This document shows positions 2,955 to 49,078 of a stretch of DNA of 64,000 nucleotides, one piece after another. A program made the position numbers and the translations under genes. The notes under the pieces were generated by a model, which did no database searches, was not told the origin of the DNA, and was given only the letters and a program-made list of their open reading frames with translations. The stretch spans positions 28,210,001 through 28,274,000 of the forward strand of contig OZ320323.1 in assembly GCA_976226885.1 (NCBI GenBank), given 5' to 3'. Source of the DNA: Iphione sp. A-MEVVRFRX5. Its lineage: Eukaryota. Numbering within the stretch: the first letter of the stretch is position 1; every line of letters begins with the position of its first letter.

Positions 2955-3915
2955 TTAACACCCCGCTCCAGGGGTAATCTTCTGTTTCGAGCAGTCCCAG
3001 GGCGTTTTATTTACCCTCACGGATCTTCTTGCGCATTCTTCAGGGTACTCATCCCCCTTGTGGGTGTCTGGGTTCCTCCCCAGCTTTTCTCGGTGGGATC
3101 CCCTTCTCCGGGACCCACCGCTTCCCCCACCATGGACCTTTTTGCCTCCCCCCCTCTGGCGATGGGGGGGGGGGCCCGGATGTCCGCCCTCCTCTCATGA
3201 GTTTTCTGAATGCCGCCAGGATGTCCGTCCTCCTCGTAGGCTCTTCCGCACTTTCCCCATGCCAGGGTGCCTACATCCCCTCAAAACTCTTCCGACTGCT
3301 CCAGGACACCATCCTTCTTCAGTATTCCCAGGGCCCTAGGGCCCCGTGGTCTTAGCCTTTTCTTGTTGTCTTCGCCACGCTACCACCCACCGGGGTACAG
3401 CCTCCCCCTTGTACTCGCGTACCCGATTTCGGTGTACGACCTTCGGTTTGGCTTGTCTGGCTCGCTGAATTACCACTCGCTCATCATCCAGCTTCTTCAC
3501 CACTAGCCATGGCCCTGTCCAGGGGAAGAATATTTTTGGACTTCTCCCTTTTGGGGGCTGGGCGTCGTGTAACCAGACCAACTCTCCGTCCGCAACAGGG
3601 TGTGCTCTTGCCCTTCGATCATAAGCCCTGGCCTGTAGCTTGGCTGCCCGTTGCAGGTGTAGCCGGGCCTCCCGATAGGCTGCTTGGAGGCGCTGCGCAA
3701 TCTCAGCTACCTTCTCAGATAACGGCTTCTCCTCTTCAGAGGGCTGAGGCACCCCGTCAATAGCGTGAACTGGTAGAATCACCTCCCGCCCAAACATAAG
3801 CATGTTGGGCGTATAACCCGTACCAGCCTGAGGGGAGGCGCGGTAAGCCATCATCAGGTAGGGTAAGGCTTCATCCCATTCGTCTTCCACCTCGTGACAG
3901 TGGGCCTTGATCATC
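2955..3915 (-). pseudogene. pol: Integrase C-terminal part and degenerate tail
   Basis: DEWDEALPYLMMAYRASPQAGTGYTPNMLMFGRE, ...KIFFPWTGPW...VVHRNRVR (GPY/F module); RRSVRVNKTPW tail near 2995-3030. Confidence 0.85.
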
Positions 3916-4738
3916 CTTGGATGCCGCAAAGATTCCCTCATGCTTCTTCAACACCTCTTCTAGTGCCCCCAGTTCTGGTTCGGACAGCTGGCTTGCAGCC
4001 GCAGTCAAGAGGGTTCTCCAAGCCTTGTCTGGTTCTAAGCAAACGCTGCGTACCTTGGGCCCGGATGCCTGAGGGGGCTCCTGTTCACTCACAGGCTGGC
4101 CCATGGCTAATGGGGTCCCTTGTTTCAGCACCACTGCTCTCTCCCCTAGGTTCCATAATGGTAGGGTCGTTCTAACTATACATCGTATCCCGAGGATACC
4201 CTTCCCCAGATTTTCCTCAGCCCCCCTTCGACAAGGAATGAGTTCCCCTAGCCACCCCCTCGCCAGCTGGTAGGGTTAAGTCATGAGCAAGACACAAGGG
4301 GGTCTCCTGTCCCCACTCTGCCGGGTCGATCCCCCTGTGGTTAAAATTTATCTCTCCTCTAGCTAAGTCTACCACTGCTTTGTGGTGGTTCAAGAAGTCA
4401 CTCCCTAGTATCCCATCCCCCTGGATCCTTGCTACCAGGAATGGATGTTGAAAATGGCCCCCCGCAATCTCTAAATCCAATACTTCTTCCCCTAAGGTGG
4501 GAATGACATGTCCTCCCGCTCCCGAGATCCGGGTTCCCCCCTTTTCCTCATCTAGGCCAGGGGCCACATCAGGGTTGATAATGGAAACTTCAGCTCCTGT
4601 GTCCACCAAAAACATGTGAGTATTGCCTCGAAGGCTTACCTGCAAGTGTGGCCCCTGGCCTTGTTCCACTATCCGCCCTGTAGGGGTCTTGTCAGCCGGG
4701 CCTCCCTGGCCTACTGGGCCGGCTGTGTTCTGTTTCCC
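3905..4738 (-). pseudogene. pol: pol N-terminus: retropepsin-type aspartic protease and pre-RT linker (frameshifted)
   Basis: FLVDTGAEVSII...GILGSDFL (ORF 4217-4759); LEEVLKKHEGIFAASKDDQG linker (ORF 3871-4134). Confidence 0.88.
4680..4738 (-). promoter_or_regulatory. -1 ribosomal frameshift signal (G GGA AAC + downstream stem/pseudoknot)
   Basis: Heptamer at 4732-4738; 6 nt later CAGCCGG pairs with CCGGCTG; loop GTAGG can pair with downstream CCTAC; the -1 frame is the protease ORF. Confidence 0.75.
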
Positions 4739-5554
4739 GAAGTGGGTAACTCTGGACAATTTCTCTTAAAATGCCCCTGCTTCCCACACTGATAGCATCC
4801 TGTAAACCGGGGCTTACGGGGCTTGGTTTCCTCCATGGCAGCATTTTCCTCGCGGAATTTCTTCAGCTCCTGAGCTATCACTTCCTCCATCTCCTTCTTC
4901 CAGGCTGGAACAGATGGGGTCTGTTGCACAGTATTGACGGTCTTGGCGCGGAACCGCTCCTGGGTCTCCATAACCTGGATGGCGTTATCCAGCGTCGTGC
5001 ATTTCGCTTCCAGGCATTTCAGATGGAGAGTATCTGCCAGTGCCCGTTGAAAAGCAGCTACTGCTGCCAGCTCCCGGGTTTCCCCGGTGACGTCCGGGTA
5101 GGCTGTTCTAACTAGCCGCCTCACTCTATCGGCTAGGTCTCGTACGTCTTCTTCTTTCCCTCGCCTCACCCCCCAAAAGTTTCTGCATGGCGATTACCCA
5201 GTCCCGCCGGCGGCCAAACCGCCGCTCCAAGGCGGCCACCCTGGAGGCGTAGTCCTTCTTTTCTTTGACTGGTAGATCGCCATAGTACATACGGGCCGCC
5301 CCCGTAAGAGACAAGGTTAGGGCTAAACATTTCGTACCTTCTCCCCAGTGACAGGCATCAGCCCATTCTGTGAACTGCCCAATCCAGCTATCCCAATCAA
5401 CAGTCTTTCCATCAAAGCGTTCCGGTTTCAAGGTGTTTACCTTCAAGGGCTCTTCAGGGGCCATCACAAAAGGCTCCTCCCCCTCCTCGTCCGGAGTTGG
5501 ACTGGGTACACGAATCTGCACTTCATCATCAACATCTACATACCTTGTAGCCAT
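4711..5554 (-). pseudogene. gag: gag (capsid-like region + CCHC zinc knuckle), one frameshift near 5170
   Basis: ORF 5126-5554 (KPERFDGKTVDWDSWIGQF...LSLTGAAR) and ORF 4711-5169 (CYQCGKQGHFKRNC) join if the G6 run near 5169-5174 loses one base. Confidence 0.88.
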
Positions 5555-5566
5555 CTTGCTTGGGGA

Positions 5567-5584
5567 ATCCCACTTCTGACACCA
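5567..5584 (-). promoter_or_regulatory. Primer-binding site complementary to the 3' end of tRNA-Leu (CAA type)
   Basis: Minus strand TGGTGTCAGAAGTGGGAT right after the LTR end ...TTACA-C; the plus strand reads GAATCCCACTTCTGACACCA, the 3' end of eukaryotic tRNA-Leu. Confidence 0.9.
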
Positions 5585-5585
5585 G

Positions 5586-6117
5586 TGTAATTTGCGTGTT
5601 TAATCCTCCACTTGGGTGTATCCAACTATTGTTACTACAGTCCAGGCTTAGTATGATCCACTGAAGTTAACCCATGTATCCTCCCAAGAGGTAGTCCCAA
5701 GTGGTTATGTGCTGCTAAGGTTCCCCGGAAGAACAAGTGCCACAAAGGTAATCCAAGTGCAAACTGGTTTATTGGTCACACAGGACCCATATTTATACCT
5801 CTCAAACAAGTCATGTGATCACAGAAAATAGCAACCATGTACTCTTCTTTGGAATAAAATGTATACAATGTCTCTTGTGTTGTCATTCTACACCAATCAG
5901 CTGTTGGCACCCTGGATGGTACCTAGAGATCCAGGGGCTAAGGTCACCTCTAATCTTAACTGGTTCGGGGTACCCCAACGATCCTTATATCTGGGGGTCA
6001 CTCGGTGCATCTAAATTCCCCTTGTGTCTGGGGTACCCCAGCCCAAACCTTCCTAGGGGTGAACAAGTACATTCAGACAAGCAGCTCAACCCTAGCTGAC
6101 TCGGGGTACCCCGTACA
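5586..6117 (-). repeat. 5' LTR (~532 bp)
   Basis: TGTA at 5586 and TACA at 6114-6117; 1 nt from the PBS; minus-strand TATAAA (5792-5797) then AATAAA (5768-5773). The outer boundary is inferred because the second LTR is not visible. Confidence 0.75.
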
Positions 6118-10914: not shown

Positions 10915-12270
10915 TTTTTTTTTATTTTTCTTTATTTCACCTGATATTTATATACAATAAGTACGATTTCTCAGGTCTCTTTCATATCATGTTTACGAGT
11001 GTAGTGTATTTACAGGAGGTGTTGTTATTTGCATATATACATATCTATACATACTTTGATACATTATGTACAGTAGTATGGTTATTATGATATGAGTACG
11101 ATAATGGGTGAATGCTGACGCGGGTAGATGTTACCTTCATTCTTATTGTCAACTTTCCCTCCTAGACATTGCCCAAGGAGTACGCTATAGCCGTAAATTT
11201 TGAATCTCACTGTTGCAATTAACATCACGTTTCATTACATTCGACTGTTGTTACGATGGGTCCTTGACAGATATTAAAGCCTTCCAGACATAGCCCAGGA
11301 AGATTACCGACTGTCCCATAGACTGATATGCCCAATGGGAGTTGATGGCACCATTTACAGTTGTTCTTGTTGTTTTAAGAGTAGTTTGACTCGTTTATTA
11401 AATTCCTTTTTGGGACAGCTCGTTATCGACACCGGTAGACTATTCCACATCTTTCCTCCAGCATATCCTATACTCTTCTTGAATGCTTCGTAGTTAGGTT
11501 TCTCGATTACAAATCTTGGCTTTGCATCATTCCGTGTTTTCATGTTGTTAGACTTGGTGGTCTGTCCTAGGGAGTGACGGCTGTACATTATTGAGAGAAC
11601 CCGGAAATTCCTTCTTGTAGAGAGATTGCTGATGTTAGCGTCCTTTTTCGCCTGGGACGATCGTATCGGGTGATTGTAGATGGTTCGTATTACTTTATTG
11701 TACATCTGTGCCAGGCGCTGGAAGTTTTGAGAATTTTCTCTGGTGAACAGTATTACACCATATTCCAATTGTGGCAATATTGTCGTTTTCACTATCAGTA
11801 TTCGATCCTTGAGGGTTAGCAGATTTTTCAATTTTCTAAACAGGAACAGCTTCCTACTGACTCGCGATAGAACTGAGTCAGTATGCTTTTCATAGGACAT
11901 GTTGTTGTCAATCAAGACCCCTAGATACTTGTATACGGGGACATGTTCTAAGGTGTAATTATCGTAGAGTATGTTAGGTGGGTCTCTTACTGGGTACCTA
12001 TATCGATACCACATGGCCTTTGTCTTTTCTCTGTTAATACAGATTCTATTGTCGGTTGTCCATTTATGGATTGCACTAACGTCAGTTTGGATGCGTTCTG
12101 TGGCCTGGGTTCTTGTGTCGCCGATTGCAGTGATCACCATGTCATCTGCATAAAGTATAGTTTTGCTAAATTTGCAGACTTGTACTATTGGGTCGATGAA
12201 GATAGTGAATAGAAGTGGACCCAGTATGGATCCCTGTGGGACACCGCAGGTTATTTTTGTTTTGTCTGAT
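10915..12270 (-). mobile_element. 5'-truncated non-LTR retrotransposon (CR1/L2-group LINE)
   Basis: RT motifs CGVPQGSILGPLLFTIFI and LYADD, then YKYLGVLID; frame open to the stop at 11355; 3'UTR ends in AATAAA and an A-rich tail at ~10915-10937. Confidence 0.9.
11355..12268 (-). pseudogene. LINE ORF2 C-terminal fragment (RT thumb and C-terminus)
   Basis: The 261-aa ORF 11355-12140 extends upstream in frame through YADD and GVPQGS. Confidence 0.88.
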
Positions 12271-13067
12271 ATTAATCATATATATGTAACATAGGAAGTT
12301 AGTTTTAAAAGATGTGCTCCAGTAGAATTAATTACAGCAGTACGTCAGTGCCCTCACCAAAATATGTATGGAAAACACAATCATCGTTGACTTCTAGAAA
12401 TAGAGTGAAGTTTAACTTATTTATCCTTCCATGGTGATCCTCCTCGTTCAGTTTTTTCCTCCGAAAGGAACGGTTAGTTCTGGGCCTCGAGTGCCCTTAG
12501 ATATGAACGGATTCAGGTCTTGGTCTGCCTAGGATGCTAAGGGATTCCGTGTTTGATTAAGCTGCTAGGCTGAGAGTAGGGTGGGACACAAGTGTCTCGG
12601 GTCAAAGCTAGGAATACAGCCATTGCGCCGGAGGGCTGGGATTATTTCATCTTTAGACCACTCCTTTATCGAATCCCTCGTGTAATAGTCCGTCTACTAT
12701 AGAGTTTTATGGTTGGGAGAAATTTTCTCAGTAACACATGGTAACTTGTATAGTCGTGTATGTTCCAACATAAATATCTATGAGAAAGAGGTGTTATATC
12801 AAAATGGAAACCACAAACTCATATTGACAGATATTGTGGTATACAATTAATATTTTTATTCTTCACACATAATTCACTGCTTCCAAACAAGGATCAAGTT
12901 GAATTCACATGAAAATATTTTCGTAATTGACCGCACAGCAGTATCTTCGCTCTCTTCTTTTTCCTCTATATCTTCCATACATCCTTTCATGTTGCTCACC
13001 AGTCCTCCTGTTATCTCTTTATCCCGACCTACCCAGTTCTTTATCCCTTTCGACTGCTCTCCTGCTC

Positions 13068-20096: not shown

Positions 20097-20173
20097 TCTG
20101 GTCAGGGTTTGAACCTAGATTCATACACCTCCCCTGACAAGGCTGGCACTCTCATCCACTGCTCCACAGCGGC
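20097..20173 (-). other. tRNA-derived sequence (A and B boxes) inside the TIR element
   Basis: Minus strand TGGAGCAGTGG ... GGTTCAAACC. Confidence 0.5.
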
Positions 20174-42384: not shown

Positions 42385-43319
42385 TCTTGTCTTGGACTAC
42401 CACCTTTTTTTACTGTGAAAGGTTGTAATGCCAACAATCAAAGAGAAGTATTGACAATATCCAAACCTTCCAGTGGTAGGTCAGTGGTATGAAAAAGGAC
42501 GAAACATCGCTTCAGTAGTTACAACCTCATCCAGCCAGATTTGCTGAAGTGGACCTGAGGATCAACCTAGACTGTGCAGAATGTTGCATTGGGGGGTTGT
42601 GCTTTAACCCCTTACCGTCCACGTCATAAGACGCATGCTAGCATTCAGGCGGTACCTGATGGGATCATTACAGATTATTGCAATCTCTGTTGTAGATATA
42701 CATGTGGAAATTTCGCAAGACTATACAAAAAGACTGGGTCTGCAATATCTGAATTTTTTTTTATAAATATTAATGGTCGAGTATTATAAATCAAGGGTTA
42801 ATGCGATGAAGTAGACTATGAAAACGCTGAGAAAAGTCATGTCATCGGTGGAAAATGTAAAAAAAATATAAGAAGGAATGAATAAAACATTATTAGTCCA
42901 GTGTACAAATTATAGCAGGAATAATTTGCTATCTGATGATGTGAAAATTATTATATTTACGAATGACAAAACATTTGTGAACGTCTAATAAAAGGAACAC
43001 CTCTACAACAGATGTCGTTACTGTGTAGTACGTCAGGCCTAGTGGCTCCATCTTCTGTAATGTAAATTAGTGTGATGTGAATAAAACGTCCCTTTTTATT
43101 ACTCGAAACTTCATTAAAAGCCAATCTTTCATTGAATTATGTTGTATATATGTAGCAAATAGTTTGGACTATTGCAGTTGTGATTTTTTAATGAATAATA
43201 CATGATATAATCCAAATGCATGATGGGCATGAGGTGACTGGGCTAGCAGATTTACGTCTTGCAAGTGCCGGCCTGAATTCGAGTGACAAAAGCATCTGTA
43301 CAAGTGTCATAGTAAATTG

Positions 43320-44170
43320 ATGACAATGGATCAACTAAGAGATGCGTTTCTGCAGAGGGGGTGAGTGTGTAAATTCATCTCTTGTCATTGATTTCCAAGA
43401 TAAAAAAATGAAAATATCAATTTTCGCATGTGTGACAAGCAACGTACGATGACTACTGGTTGCTGATGTGAAGGTTGGAATGATGAATTATTGATAATAG
43501 GTCTGCTAGCGAATAATGAATGTTTTGAGGTGTAGTGATATGCCAGAATGACACATTACTGTAATTCAGATAATAACATTCTTTTATTTTGTTTTATGCA
43601 TTTAGTCTTATGGTGCCACCTGGACTCTTCAGATTGATTGAGAAGGGCCGCGATAGGCATAGTGTCTATAGGAGGTTGTGGGCAATAGCCAAAGTAAGTC
43701 CAGATTTTTTTTGATTAGTATTCAGCCTGTTACCTTGTGGTTTTTCGTATATCAAGCAAGCATCTTTATGAAATGGAATATGGAAACAAGTGAATATGTC
43801 ATATGAGTGAACAAGAGACATTTCTTTGATCAATGTGTTTTTATCATTCAGTTTGGGGCTAAACTTGGACAGGGTGCAACGACATTCACATTCCCTGTTG
43901 AGCTGAGAGATGCAGTGCGAGATCAGTTCAAAGATGTTCCTGATGCTGGATATGACAGTCAGTACACAAACATGCCAGGGGTATGTGTGGAACTCCTGTG
44001 CTTCCAATGTCTTGGTCTACATGTGTGGCAGACATACCAGTACAAGTTTGAAATACTCTTGCATTGTATCAATTGTACTTCTGCATCAGAAGCCCTGACA
44101 ACGATGTTTACTTTTGCAGGTGTACCATGTTTCCTTGGAGGAATTGTCCCAGATGAACTACCCAAAGTAA
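43320..44170 (+). CDS. Second piggyBac gene, join(43320..43360,43606..43693,43852..43980,44120..44170), ~102 aa, unknown function
   Basis: Donors GTGAGT, GTAAGT, GTATGT; acceptors TTTAG, TTCAG, TTTTGCAG; phases 2,0,0 all in frame; TAA at 44168-44170; AATAAA at 44215-44220. Confidence 0.72.
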
Positions 44171-44248
44171 ACCACAGGTACAAGACAAACTGAAGTCATG
44201 AAATTACAGATGAAAATAAAAAGATTCAAATCCGATCACATAGTCTCT

Positions 44249-47108
44249 TCATTTGCCTATCCTAGCCTTGAGTTGTTGGAACGCATCAGTGTGCCACAGA
44301 TTGAAGCAATTTCTTTCTCCACTAAGACAGATGGGTACGTTGCATTGCTCTTCTGAGCAATACCATTTGGTCTTGTTCTCCTTCCCATGCAGAACATAGC
44401 ATACTTTGCAGTTGCGGCGTGTTGAAGAATGCATTGGCCTGTGAACACCATCGAATCCAAAGTGGCTTCTAATACGTGGTCTCAAGGCAGTATGGGGGTT
44501 TTCTTCCAAGTCACTGATTCCAGCCAGCTGACGACAGAGTTCTTCACGAAAATTCAGGTGTGAGAATCCGCTTGGTCGTTGTAGAGCAGTTACCTCGGGG
44601 TGCAGCTTCTGCCACTCTTTGAACAGCAAGAAGCTGTTCAGCACCGACATATCCAGCAAATGATAGAATAGTGTCTTCCACCATTTTTTTGATTTGTGCA
44701 GCATGGAGTATGTCCCCAGGAGTTGGTCAGAGATGTCCACCCCGCCCATGTGTGAGTTGTAGTCATGGATAGCCAATGGTCGCCTGATCATCATTTCCCT
44801 GTGACTTCCATCAGGTAGTTTCAGGTGACGCCTGACGAAAACATAATCACATCCTCTGTGCATGCTGCTGCAGGCACACACGGGCCTATTGTCCAGCCAT
44901 TGTTGACAGAGGATCCTGTCTGTTCTAATGAACCGTGTGTCTCCTCTTTGGGCTGCCTTTGCCCATGCCTTGTCTCTGAGGGCCTGCAATATTTAAGTGA
45001 TAGTATTTACAAATAATTCAAAACTATGAAGGATGAAGATTACAGTAAAACCCGATGTGCTTGCCTTCTTTCATCATGCTTTATTGTAGATCGTTTCGGG
45101 ACACTCGACCCCCTTCATCAGGAGTCTTCATACTTTATAATTAATTTAATTTTTTTTTTAATCTCAATGTAAAACTCACCGCAGGAAAGCCACGCCGTGT
45201 GACCACACTCGTTCCACAAGCAGCAGATCCCCTGGACATCAGACATTTGATGAGTGGCAGAGATGTAAAGAAATTATCAAAATATATCTTGTACCCTTGG
45301 TCAAGATGCTGATCCATGAGGTTAGTAACAACATCGTACCCAAGGCCATGTTGTGATGGGCGCTGACATCTACCAGTGTATACACTGTAAAAACAGTCAA
45401 TATCAGATATTCATTACATGCGCTGAAACTGTCTTGGCGCAAACATTTGGAATTCCATTCTGGATACAGTTGAACCAAATATATGCATGTTAATACCAAG
45501 TGCACCAAAATTGTTAAACACACTACTTCCATCACAAAGACAACACTTATGCACACCTGAAGTTGATGGTGTAACCTGTTGTCGACTGGCATAAGCACCA
45601 CAGCTTAAAACCAAACCGTATTGGTTTATTGGGTATAAATTGCTTCAGACTGCATCGTGCCTTTGAGCGCACCATACGTTCGTCCACAGCTACATGTTCC
45701 TTGGGTTGATATAAACTTGAACACATCCTCCTGACATGATCCAACACTGGTCTGACTTTTGCTAGGTGGTCAGTTGGGTCCTCTGCAGATGGGTTACTTG
45801 CATGCAGCATGCTAGAGATGGCCTTGAATCTAAAAGAGAGAGGATTACACTTCAAATACCTTATGCCTTAGTACATATGCCAATTTAGAATTCCAATGTT
45901 CATCATGTTGATGCTGAGTACAGAAACATGCAGGTTCTTAGTCTCAGGTACTTAGGTATTTAGTCGCCCTATCAAAATGATTCTGTTTTGGCACTAAAAC
46001 CTACACACCCATGGTTCTCTAATATTTTCCATTTCACCCAATTTTTCGTTGTGAGTATGTGGGCCAACAAGAAGCACGGGGCTCACCGATTTCTGGAGAG
46101 AAAGCGTGATGCCCATCCACCGGAGTACAATGTTGACTGATTCCAATAACGTGACACATCATGAAGTTCAATGAAACCCATCAAGATACACAGCGCTATG
46201 AATGATCTCATCTCTTGAAATGTCACTTCGTCCCAGGTACCTTGTGGGGTAGCATACGATGGCTTGTTATGGATCGTCAGCCAGCCATACAAATTAGTGT
46301 TATCACACAGCATCTGCAGAAGCAAATATGGAAGGATGTTCATCCCACATAGGATTCAATGAGGGCTACGATAAGGGGATGTTACAAATCATAAATACAT
46401 CAATGAAATGAACATATATATGATACAGTTACACATGCACATACTTGCATCAATTCATGAGTGAAGAATAGCTGGAAAAAATCCACAGCTCTGGTGAGTC
46501 CTTCCATGCGCCATCTCGTAATCCTATCTGATACATGGGGGCCTGGAGCCCGCATGGGAGTGAATGCAGGTATACTTGGATGTGAGTCGTCATCCTCATA
46601 TGTTTTCGGCCTGTAAAAAAAAAGTATATTAACAAATGTTTCAACACTGCCAATAATGACTATCCATAGCGCAATGGATAGCGCACTTGCTTTTGGTGCG
46701 CACGACCCGGGTTCGATTCCCAGACGATTTTTCTGTCAACAGATGAAAACCTTTTTTTTTCATTAAAAAAAGCACAACTATATAATAATTATATTTAAAA
46801 ACATAGTTTTACATTTAATCTTGCAGTTTCACCTTAATTACGAGATAATTTGGCAAAAACGTTTGTTAATCATAGAAGATTCACTTTTACCTTGATGTTA
46901 TTGGACGAGCAGCTCCAACAGCCGGGACTTCTTCCATCTCTTCTTCATCAACTTCCATCATTAAATCATTCATCTCAATTTCCTCTAATTCTTCCTCTTC
47001 ACCTGATGACATCCCTGACATCTCGTCACTTTCCAAAGCTTTTTTCCCTTTTCCTGAATTCCATAACTCCCGAGCTCTTAGAGCAGCAGATCTCACAGTA
47101 CGTGACAT
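44249..47108 (-). CDS. piggyBac (PGBD4-like) transposase, six exons: 47108-46891, 46610-46445, 46313-46087, 45829-45557, 45384-45180, 44983-44249; 607 aa
   Basis: All five introns are GT-AG with matching phases (2,0,2,2,0); 1824 nt open; acidic N-terminus, DFFQLFFT, VAVDERM, NKPIRFGFKLW, FDNFFTS, YNSHMGGVDISDQ, KKWWK, C-terminal CKVC...C...C...C...CFNLWH domain. Confidence 0.93.
45078..45125 (-). ncRNA. Hammerhead-ribozyme-like core of Penelope-like-element type in transposase intron 5
   Basis: Minus strand CTGATGA-A-GGGGG-TCGAGTG-TCCC-GAAAC-GATC followed by AATAAA; helix I partner not evident. Confidence 0.45.
46660..46732 (+). ncRNA. tRNA-derived Pol III-type unit (not a canonical tRNA) in transposase intron 1
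   Basis: A box TAGCGCAATGG, B box GGTTCGATTCC, then TTTTT; the acceptor stem does not pair. Confidence 0.5.
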
Positions 47109-49078
47109 TGTTGCAAATGCAGGTATTACTTGTTACCATGACAATTCTTTTCATAAAAAACAAGTTAAACAACAATTTTCGGGGCATGGAGAATCTTTAT
47201 TGTTCATACAGATTACCATGTACATCACAATTTCTTAAAAGAAAAAATTACTGTCATCTTCTCGTTCGAAACGTCATCGTGCACTTTTGCACGATTTTCC
47301 TATGCGTGGACGGTAAGGAGTTAAGTACAGTACTCAAGAATGATCAATAGAATGTGTAACAGGTACGTTACGCTCTAGATAGAGGGGGGTGAAAAGAGAC
47401 ATAGTCATTATATACGCTATGTCATTTGAGACTAAGGTTTGACCCCGGATTAACCCTCTGAAGTCAATAGCACTCCACAATGCGGTCTTACCTCATTTTT
47501 CCTTACACTACATGTATAAAACGCTGCATGAATATAGACCCAGTCTATGGAATGCGCAAAATAATGTGATTTTAGAAAAATAGAGTATTTAATAGTTCAT
47601 AGTATTATTTGCAGATAATATTCAGAAAGGTGCTAACTCATACATATTCTATGTATGGAAAAGGATTGTCATTGAAAACTTATGCCTTATGTAACCCTTT
47701 TTTCAAAGCCGAGTAGGAATATCTCTTGGTAATATATGTGATGCCTCCTTTGTGTTCAACCGAGCATAACTTACTCATAACAACCAGTGCAAATGCTGTG
47801 AGCCCTCTGGCAGTAAATGGGTTCAGCATATGAATCAGCGCGAAAATAGCGTATACATCTGGTATGTTTTGACTTATGTAATGATTCCATAGAGGATCCC
47901 CCCCCCTGCTGGAGAGCGCATAACTTCAGTCACTTAGTATTGTTTACACAAAAAGTCAGAGTCAATCATCAAGCATCGCACATAAGAGCTGGTTTCTGAA
48001 TCACCAAGGACCAATAAAACGTTTCACTCCTGCAATAAGGACGAGGGAAATCAATCCAAATGAGGAGGCATTTTCATTTTAGTGTCGCAAAATCAAAATG
48101 ATTGTGTCTGTCCAATCACTTAGTGATAATGATTTGGGATTTCATAAAGAGTAATTCAATGCAATTATGTTATGCTTGGGTGACAGACAAAGAAAGTCTT
48201 TAAACTATTTGGCCTGAACCTCCATTTTTCATAGGAGAATGGCCCTCAACTGATCAGGTTTTTGTGAAAAACGATAACGCTGAAAGTTATCAACTGATTG
48301 TCCCGAGCGACCACAGTGTGATGATCGTGGTGCTGGTGGAAGTTTGGCTGTTTTGTGATGACCTGTTGCTCCGGCCTATTAAGTTTCTGTTCCCGTTGAT
48401 TCCAGATCGCTGTCTCTCGATATCATTTTGTGTTTTAATTTCTCGCTTTCCCTCTAAACTTAACCACTGTCTGTACAGCGGTAAGGCGGAATATATTATA
48501 TTATAAAGTTAACAGGGTTTCTTAGTGTAAACTACAAATAAAGAAGACAATTTCAGCTATCCTTTGGCTATAACAAAATGTAAAACTCTTAGTGTGACCA
48601 ATGAAATTGCATCCCAAAGGACATTCAAGGATCAAAGTGACATGCTATAAACCATTGCGTTTATTTAATGATAAATATAAAAGGCAACAAAAAATAAAAG
48701 GTGCATTTTTTGTAGAAATTGTTCGATTAACAGGTTTGTTCGGATATGAAATATTGCAATAGATCATTAAAGGTCAAAATGTTCCAACAGAAAGCATTCG
48801 GAAATGGAGAATATTTGTATATGGAGTGTACGGGACAGCTCTGGCCTGCTGTATTTGTAATACAAGTGAAAGAGCTGGGGCCGGTTCCCCAATCACAGTT
48901 AATACTGTGATTAAGCCTGATCCATGGATCAATTATTAATCCAGTAATTTCTGTTCCTCAATAAAAGTTGATCTCAAAGATTAAGAGTTGCTCCTTTTCT
49001 CCGTGTTGACCCATGCAAAAGCACTCCACAAAAGGCTTTGATCCAGGGTAAGTCCGATCTTACTCTTTAGTAAGCTCA

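Follow-up and report, generated by a model that had tools for sequence, protein, structure and literature searches.

Most mobile piggyBac elements carry a transposase domain without introns, and the multi-intron piggyBac genes treated in the sections of the literature cited here are domesticated (Bouallegue et al. 2017, PMC5381638; Pavelitz et al. 2013, PMC3902484, the latter also for the intronless majority). A preliminary description of the locus analysed below had taken the well-studied active piggyBacs to be intronless. To this there is a published exception in Pokey of Daphnia, a mobile element of the piggyBac superfamily for which the cited part of the report gives one spliced transposase intron, confirmed by RT-PCR (Elliott et al. 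2013, PMC3849761). With regard to gene content, the cited sections of Kojima and Bao 2022 (PMC9587614) list only two piggyBac families with a KolX-like second protein, piggyBac-2_GrCh and piggyBac-14_PI, and most of the ballast cysteines are lacking in these second proteins. The main text of a recent large piggyBac mining study, by term search, makes no mention of introns (PMC13461360). Our literature survey, to which Repbase/Dfam and subscription papers were external and may hold such families, returned no account of a mobile piggyBac clade from animals with several introns, nor of an intron in a DNA transposon that carries a Pol III cassette, nor of this combination. Since piggyBacs are regarded as elements with a single ORF and mostly no introns, clades of this kind may be systematically missed.

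Anatomy and classification of the element

The window analysed here is a stretch of 64,000 nucleotides from Iphione sp. A-MEVVRFRX5 (contig OZ320323.1), in which a piggyBac element occupies positions 42604-47324, TTAA included at either end. The element holds two genes arranged tail-to-tail, the plus-strand ORF2 ending about 80 nt from the stop codon of the minus-strand transposase. Its features are as follows, with fractions referring to the 76 least damaged loci of the clade described below:

42604..42607, no strand: TTAA target-site duplication (TSD), left
42608..42623, plus strand: TIR at the ORF2 end, starting CCCC
43326..43360, plus strand: ORF2 exon 1, ATG at 43326; next intron at codon 11, phase 2, in 76/76
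43606..43693, plus strand: ORF2 exon 2; next intron at codon 41, phase 0, in 76/76
43852..43980, plus strand: ORF2 exon 3, with a P-x6-[IVL]R-xx-F motif; next intron in 73/76
44120..44170, plus strand: ORF2 exon 4, to the stop codon
44215..44220, plus strand: AATAAA, likely ORF2 polyadenylation signal
44249..44983, minus strand: transposase exon 6, D446, Cys-rich domain, stop codon (PF13843, PF13842)
45180..45384, minus strand: transposase exon 5, D331 (PF13843)
45557..45829, minus strand: transposase exon 4, D253 (PF13843)
46087..46313, minus strand: transposase exon 3 (PF13843)
46445..46610, minus strand: transposase exon 2
46660..46732, plus strand: tRNA-type Pol III promoter cassette, in transposase intron 1 (46611-46890) and antisense to the transposase
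46667-46677, 46691-46694, 46710-46720 and 46728-46732, plus strand: A box, internal T4, B box and T5 of the cassette, in that order
46891..47108, minus strand: transposase exon 1, ATG at 47108, acidic N-terminus
47305..47320, minus strand: TIR at the transposase 5' end, starting CTCC
47321..47324, no strand: TTAA target-site duplication, right

The predicted transposase comprises six exons with an uninterrupted frame of 607 aa, separated by introns of 280, 131, 257, 172 and 196 nt (introns 1-5); among the 576 combinations of GT/AG sites near the junctions picked by eye, exactly one yields an open frame. The PF13843 profile matches exons 3-6 in profile order, each exceeding the cut-off, and PF13842 matches the tail with an E-value of 4e-4, under its cut-off. 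The VDE, FDN and GVD motifs supply the catalytic triad D253, D331 and D446, conserved in 76/76, 75/76 and 76/76 loci of the clade, respectively. The Cys-rich tail (C555, C558, C572, C577, C582, C589 and H594) retains its six cysteines and one histidine in 74-76 of the 76. In these respects the frame, triad and tail bear out the preliminary description, which had reported a six-exon protein of this length with the three motifs and a Cys-rich domain.

The 16-nt TIRs differ at a single position, the second (CCCC versus CTCC), and with the intact TTAA duplication agree with the near-perfect termini reported previously, as does the CTCC start of one of them. This start is normal for the clade, whose termini are mostly CCCC, CCCT, CTCT and CTCC, and CTCC occurs at 7/80 and 6/80 ends of the members with TIR and TTAA; we thus rejected as unlikely a reading of it as an inactivating change. 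The window copy has a TTAA duplication, short TIRs starting with C, a DDD triad within PF13843 and a C-terminal Cys-rich domain, and on each feature examined the element belongs to the piggyBac superfamily. Kolobok identity is excluded, as the termini start with C rather than following the 5'-RR...YY-3' form that defines Kolobok in the cited section of PMC9587614. The retained TIR and TSD speak against a domesticated PGBD gene. The preliminary description was therefore right for the transposase, TIRs and TSD, but incomplete, having missed ORF2 and the Pol III cassette.

A large clade of low-copy subfamilies with recent movement

The genome assembly comprises 1.18 Gb in 89 contigs, and in a DNA search of it (best 40 of 159 candidates) the only near-identical match is the element itself. 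The nearest relative shows about 71% nucleotide and 76% amino acid identity, with a dS of about 2 and synonymous sites near saturation, and over long stretches no second copy exceeds about 71-73%. The element is unique at its left end and in its left flank, and a repeat in the right flank begins about 180 nt away. Queries with ORF2 and with exon 6 recovered at least 160 matches (150 of 806 candidates scored) and at least 207 matches (150 of 1996 candidates scored), respectively. The check on copy number and identity proposed in the preliminary description hence gave no near-identical second copy, but a large diverged clade in the same genome. Outside it, 25 database transposases share only 38-45% identity, over exon 6, and metagenome and viral scans returned no relatives.

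We modelled 98 loci with a purpose-made spliced aligner that rewards GT/AG sites, namely the window copy, 37 loci found by DNA search, 40 chosen for an ORF2 hit and 20 for a hit to the transposase. Among these, whose intact share is inflated because they were drawn from the tops of hit lists, 80 have TIR and TTAA, 49 an open full-length transposase and 83 an open ORF2, with 43 combining all three. A branch with SH-aLRT support of 99.9 separates the clade, represented by its 76 least damaged loci, from seven database transposases, the only outgroups used. Subfamilies number about 1-4 copies each among the sampled loci.

Ten pairs of loci share 96.8-99.3% identity, and nine of these lie in unrelated flanks with their introns kept; the exception, L076/L077, has its flanks in common and represents a duplication or haplotig. 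The unrelated flanks show that intron-bearing relatives transposed recently. Of the two copies in a near-identical (97-99%) pair, one or both have usually acquired a stop or frameshift; with recent relatives already damaged, the unblemished window copy is probably young. The earlier proposal of a potentially active element in which introns and mobility coexist thus stands at the level of the family, though not directly for the window copy, which is intact in both genes, TIRs and TSD but has no near-identical sister, and whose own activity is a prediction.

It is conceivable that the window copy is instead an old single-copy insertion, immobile or domesticated under host selection, as its unique left end, its lack of a close second copy and its one TIR mismatch would allow. 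We regard this as very improbable, given that its TIR, TSD and layout are those of its mobile relatives, that CTCC ends are common among them, that the damage seen in recent pairs implies a young age for an unblemished copy, and that 43 equally intact loci are too many for separate domestications.

Transposase introns and their precise loss

Intron and cassette counts were made on the 76 least damaged loci, 22 of the 98 having been dropped beforehand as damaged. Their transposases share six intron slots, at codon/phase 72/2, 128/0, 203/2, 294/2, 363/0 and 501/1, occupied in 76, 64, 60, 62, 59 and 37 loci, respectively; slot 501/1 is empty in the window copy. The introns of relatives fall at the same codon and phase as those of the window copy, and relatives without window introns 2-5 read straight across the corresponding junctions in genomic DNA, a comparison that supports the predicted splicing of the transposase. 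Intron absences are precise in 98/98 cases. Per slot, Dollo reconstruction gives 0, 6, 8, 7, 8 and 12 losses and Fitch reconstruction 0, 6, 7, 7, 8 and 8 changes, with the Fitch root state of slot 501 being absent, so that this slot may reflect a gain rather than a loss. Five of the six slots are empty in several separate lineages, and intron 1 is never lost. The precision of the losses suggests that these occasional events probably occurred through recombination with cDNA, that is, reverse-transcribed mRNA.

The preliminary description had suggested splicing-level control as in P elements, which would mean tissue-specific intron retention, most plausibly of intron 1, confining active transposase to the germ line. 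Intron 1 is indeed present in 76/76 loci, kept also in the 13 elements that lack the cassette, and longer than the others (median 321 nt versus 135-161), and retention breaks the frame for 327/329 modelled introns; such frame-breaking, however, is true of almost any intron, and first introns are generally those least often lost. Apart from the splice sites and the Pol III cassette, no conserved block was seen when the intron-1 sequences were aligned, and the location of the cassette there offers another reason for intron 1 to be kept. With the other five slots repeatedly absent, the suggestion is unsupported and we consider such control quite improbable: nothing points to regulated splicing, and the introns are probably spliced constitutively.

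ORF2, a conserved convergent gene

ORF2 is a predicted four-exon gene encoding 100 aa. A model of at least 70 aa was obtained in 97/98 loci; in loci chosen by transposase hit alone it was found in 19/20, with scores of 157-273 as compared to 20-35 for 24 control segments. Both genes are under purifying selection, with omega at 0.113 in ORF2 and at 0.067 in residues 204-403 of the transposase across 46 undamaged loci. Their trees are correlated (Mantel rho 0.73, a value reached in 0/999 permutations), and 19 of the 23 supported ORF2 splits are present in the transposase tree, with the remaining four in conflict. AATAAA or ATTAAA occurs on the ORF2 strand in 46/71 intergenic gaps, as against a poly(A) signal on the transposase strand in 2/71, and the first AATAAA of the latter strand lies 156-1933 nt beyond the coding end. 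Such signals being rare and distant, the transposase mRNA would likely overlap ORF2 in antisense.

A profile search of 1.84 billion proteins recovered 29 ORF2 homologues; 20 were looked up, and an organism name was attached to four, all gastropod (Nucella, two Haliotis and Batillaria). The gastropod homologues include Nucella ACOMHN_002146 and Haliotis XP_067655863.1 and XP_046575683.1. In Nucella the cluster comprises five members, located on different contigs, the pattern expected of a transposon gene. Full-length annotated gastropod homologues match the profile of spliced ORF2, with E-values down to 3.5e-18, and span its junctions 2 and 3, some also junction 1. A word search with ORF2 exon 3 gave no match.

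ORF2 weakly resembles the Cys-free end of the ballast domain (PF20478; PDB 6U9V) of P2X7 and of KolX, the protein of Kol0 Kolobok. The shared feature is the spacing of the third ballast motif, given in the cited section of Rump et al. 2020 (PMC7016195). This P-x6-IR-xx-F/Y pattern, a short motif picked after the likeness had been noticed, occurs in 69/73 ORF2 proteins (0.8 in shuffles) and in 26/29 homologues from outside. ORF2 proteins have a median of 0 cysteines and lack the seven zinc-binding cysteines of the ballast. Among 13 ORF2 homologues and four genomic pieces, none matched PF20478 at E-values up to 10, in a search whose filters drop weak matches. The sole PF20478 candidate in the Iphione genome was set aside as a gag-like ORF. 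Sequence searches of the PDB with ORF2 returned nothing significant, and the ESM Atlas nothing usable. A structure model of the Nucella homologue, with a pLDDT of 90, aligned to residues 473-595 of 6u9v_A, the rat P2X7 ballast, at Z 2.3 (rmsd 4.1 over 76 residues, rank 49/48,161). This target had been named beforehand, but the score lies in the noise range, a BEN domain reaching Z 2.4 and the best row Z 3.2. Foldseek with the same model found no match at E 0.001 in the PDB or BFVD. Altogether, we see the case for homology of ORF2 to ballast/KolX as evenly balanced.

A Pol III promoter cassette in intron 1

Scored against the generic A and B box consensus, both boxes of the window cassette have 0 mismatches; they lie 43 nt apart, start to start, which is tRNA-gene spacing, and a T5 run follows. 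An A+B pair with at most two mismatches occurs antisense in intron 1 of 61/76 loci and in the sense orientation in 1/76, with ORF2 intron 1 giving 0/76 on either strand and shuffles 0/380. Beyond intron 1, no such pair was found in the TIR-bounded elements. The spacing is 43 nt in 47/61 cases, and pairwise identity between elements is 78% in the boxes and 47% in the spacer; for comparison, the introns of the closest relative are only 2-12 points over shuffled identity. A T4 run separates the boxes in 41/46 cases.

The cassette was also compared with tRNA genes and tRNA-derived repeats. Pairing of the cloverleaf stems (acceptor, D, anticodon and outer T) is 0.39-0.57 over 46 rows, equal to shuffles; ARAGORN finds no tRNA in the window, and the Rfam list has no tRNA row. 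We rejected a tRNA gene, as no cloverleaf is conserved. A dispersed tRNA-derived SINE was rejected as well, because genome matches to the cassette lie inside clade elements in 12/12 cases, in one DNA search that may skip very common words. The cassette is absent from 13/76 elements, in five lineages, most with an open transposase. As these include a recent pair, L078/L079, elements can move without the cassette. The target of selection seems to be the promoter rather than a tRNA, and the cassette likely recruits TFIIIC/Pol III.

Since the boxes are conserved and the RNA stems are not, the main role of the cassette may be to hold a Pol III complex on the DNA, which would maintain the transposase promoter nearby in an open state or shield it from silencing. 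As in tDNA barriers, the cassette with TFIIIC/Pol III bound to it would form a barrier, at a distance of about 450-650 nt from the 5' end of the element. The main rival to this barrier is a head-on throttle, part of a wider alternative in which both extras are brakes, a short antisense RNA from the cassette or a head-on collision with Pol II throttling the transposase, and ORF2 or its convergent transcript acting as a repressor. This alternative would account for the very few copies in each sampled subfamily, and it accommodates the antisense cassette with its downstream T-run as well as the shortage of poly(A) signals on the transposase strand, with the resulting likely antisense overlap of ORF2. 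The antisense orientation, however, has a single origin and so does not count as repeated evidence, the T4 run between the boxes could truncate the RNA early, and no obvious burst of copies is seen among the sampled members of the cassette-less lineages. We view the brakes as a rather unlikely explanation and prefer the barrier.

A model for the element and its implications

Taken together, we find it fairly probable that the window copy is an intact, young, autonomous cut-and-paste piggyBac with three conserved parts: a spliced transposase, an ORF2 whose 100-aa protein likely helps transposition or adjusts it, and a Pol III cassette within intron 1. Its introns would travel with the element because it moves as DNA, and the lineage would persist as many low-copy subfamilies. 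A more specific proposal, which we put forward tentatively and with greater doubt, is that of an undescribed animal piggyBac lineage combining the spliced transposase with a ballast/KolX-derived cofactor and a captured tRNA promoter acting as a TFIIIC/Pol III barrier or throttle. If true, its cofactor would have ancestry in common with Kolobok transposons and the P2X7 tail, the element would be a DNA transposon with its own tDNA-type chromatin control element, and the coexistence of dozens of intact low-copy subfamilies would be explained.

What is novel here lies less in the introns than in the conservation of a partner gene and of a Pol III promoter within intron 1. A selected Pol III promoter in a DNA transposon would be a new route to resisting or managing silencing, and the element, being compact and having a small partner gene that is conserved, offers a direct test bed for KolX-like accessory proteins. 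The clade supplies dozens of intact and divergent transposases, with TIRs to match, as new vector candidates, and six intron slots with repeated precise loss form a natural series for the study of intron loss.

Comparison with known systems

Autonomous piggyBacs of the Trichoplusia ni type, as presented in the cited sections of Bouallegue et al. 2017 (PMC5381638), have the same TTAA, C-starting TIRs, DDD triad, Cys-rich domain and PF13843 match; relative to that account, the five transposase introns, the convergent second gene and the intronic Pol III cassette are found only here. KolX of Kol0 Kolobok and the P2X7 ballast share the third-motif spacing with ORF2 but have a zinc-binding Cys cluster, absent from ORF2, and the carrier of KolX is a Kolobok whereas that of ORF2 is a piggyBac. 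Closer in composition are piggyBac-2_GrCh and piggyBac-14_PI, which in the sections of their accounts drawn on here likewise pair a piggyBac with a small second protein without most of the ballast cysteines. Their suffixes presumably denote a red alga and an oomycete, respectively. The piggyBac-2_GrCh protein as presented there also has an R-x3-Y ... G-x-L-G ... P-x6-[IV]R-xx-[FW] pattern in common with ORF2, as noted by eye; those sections describe neither introns nor orientation nor a Pol III cassette.

Pokey, like the present element, is mobile with an intron in its transposase, but in the cited part of its description (PMC3849761) it has one intron of 68-84 nt, compared with six shared slots here, targets rDNA and has no second gene described. 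The domesticated PGBD5, PiggyMac and TPB2 resemble the present transposase in having several introns within the transposase domain. They are, however, fixed host genes without TIR or TSD, whereas 80/98 loci of this clade retain TIRs with TTAA and relatives of the window copy have moved recently.

Genomic surroundings of the piggyBac element

Beyond the piggyBac element itself, the window holds the following features, listed here together with the gap between the element's two coding regions (window positions):

3336-5599, minus strand: broken pieces of a gypsy-type LTR retrotransposon (gag zinc knuckle, protease and integrase C-terminus)
11355-12275, minus strand: LINE-like reverse transcriptase fragment (PF00078)
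about 20100-20170, minus strand: A and B box pair, spacing 51 nt, outside the element
32347-32826, minus strand: initial coding exon of a GPCR of the rhodopsin family (PF00001, E 3e-21)
44170-44249: gap between the transposase and ORF2 stops
47500-47800: old dispersed repeat, starting some 180 nt beyond the element's right end

The element sits about 10 kb upstream of the GPCR exon, and the old repeat recurs in at least 39 other places at 67-87% identity. The A and B box pair is possibly the head of a SINE.

A non-coding family sharing the element's ends

The first 17-18 nt of the element, comprising TTAA and the TIR, are common to a family of non-coding repeats roughly 1.02-1.08 kb in length, for which we recovered 119 termini in the animal's own genome (examples L127-L135); both ends were located in four of nine examined copies. 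This is a MITE family, probably mobilised by the element's piggyBac clade, and an older one, since its copies are 75-93% identical. Separately, a distant (27%) piggyBac-like fragment adjoins one clade element (L029:2041-2757).

Predicted antisense overlap and ORF2 homologues

When the gap between the two stops was also examined in relatives, a poly(A) signal for ORF2 was present in 46 of 71 gaps, and one for the transposase in only 2. Because the gap almost never holds the latter, the transposase mRNA would probably run antisense through ORF2.

The ORF2 homologues P0026-P0057, including those from gastropods, end C-terminally in a CxxC motif, whereas the ORF2 proteins of the animal's own genome lack this ending.
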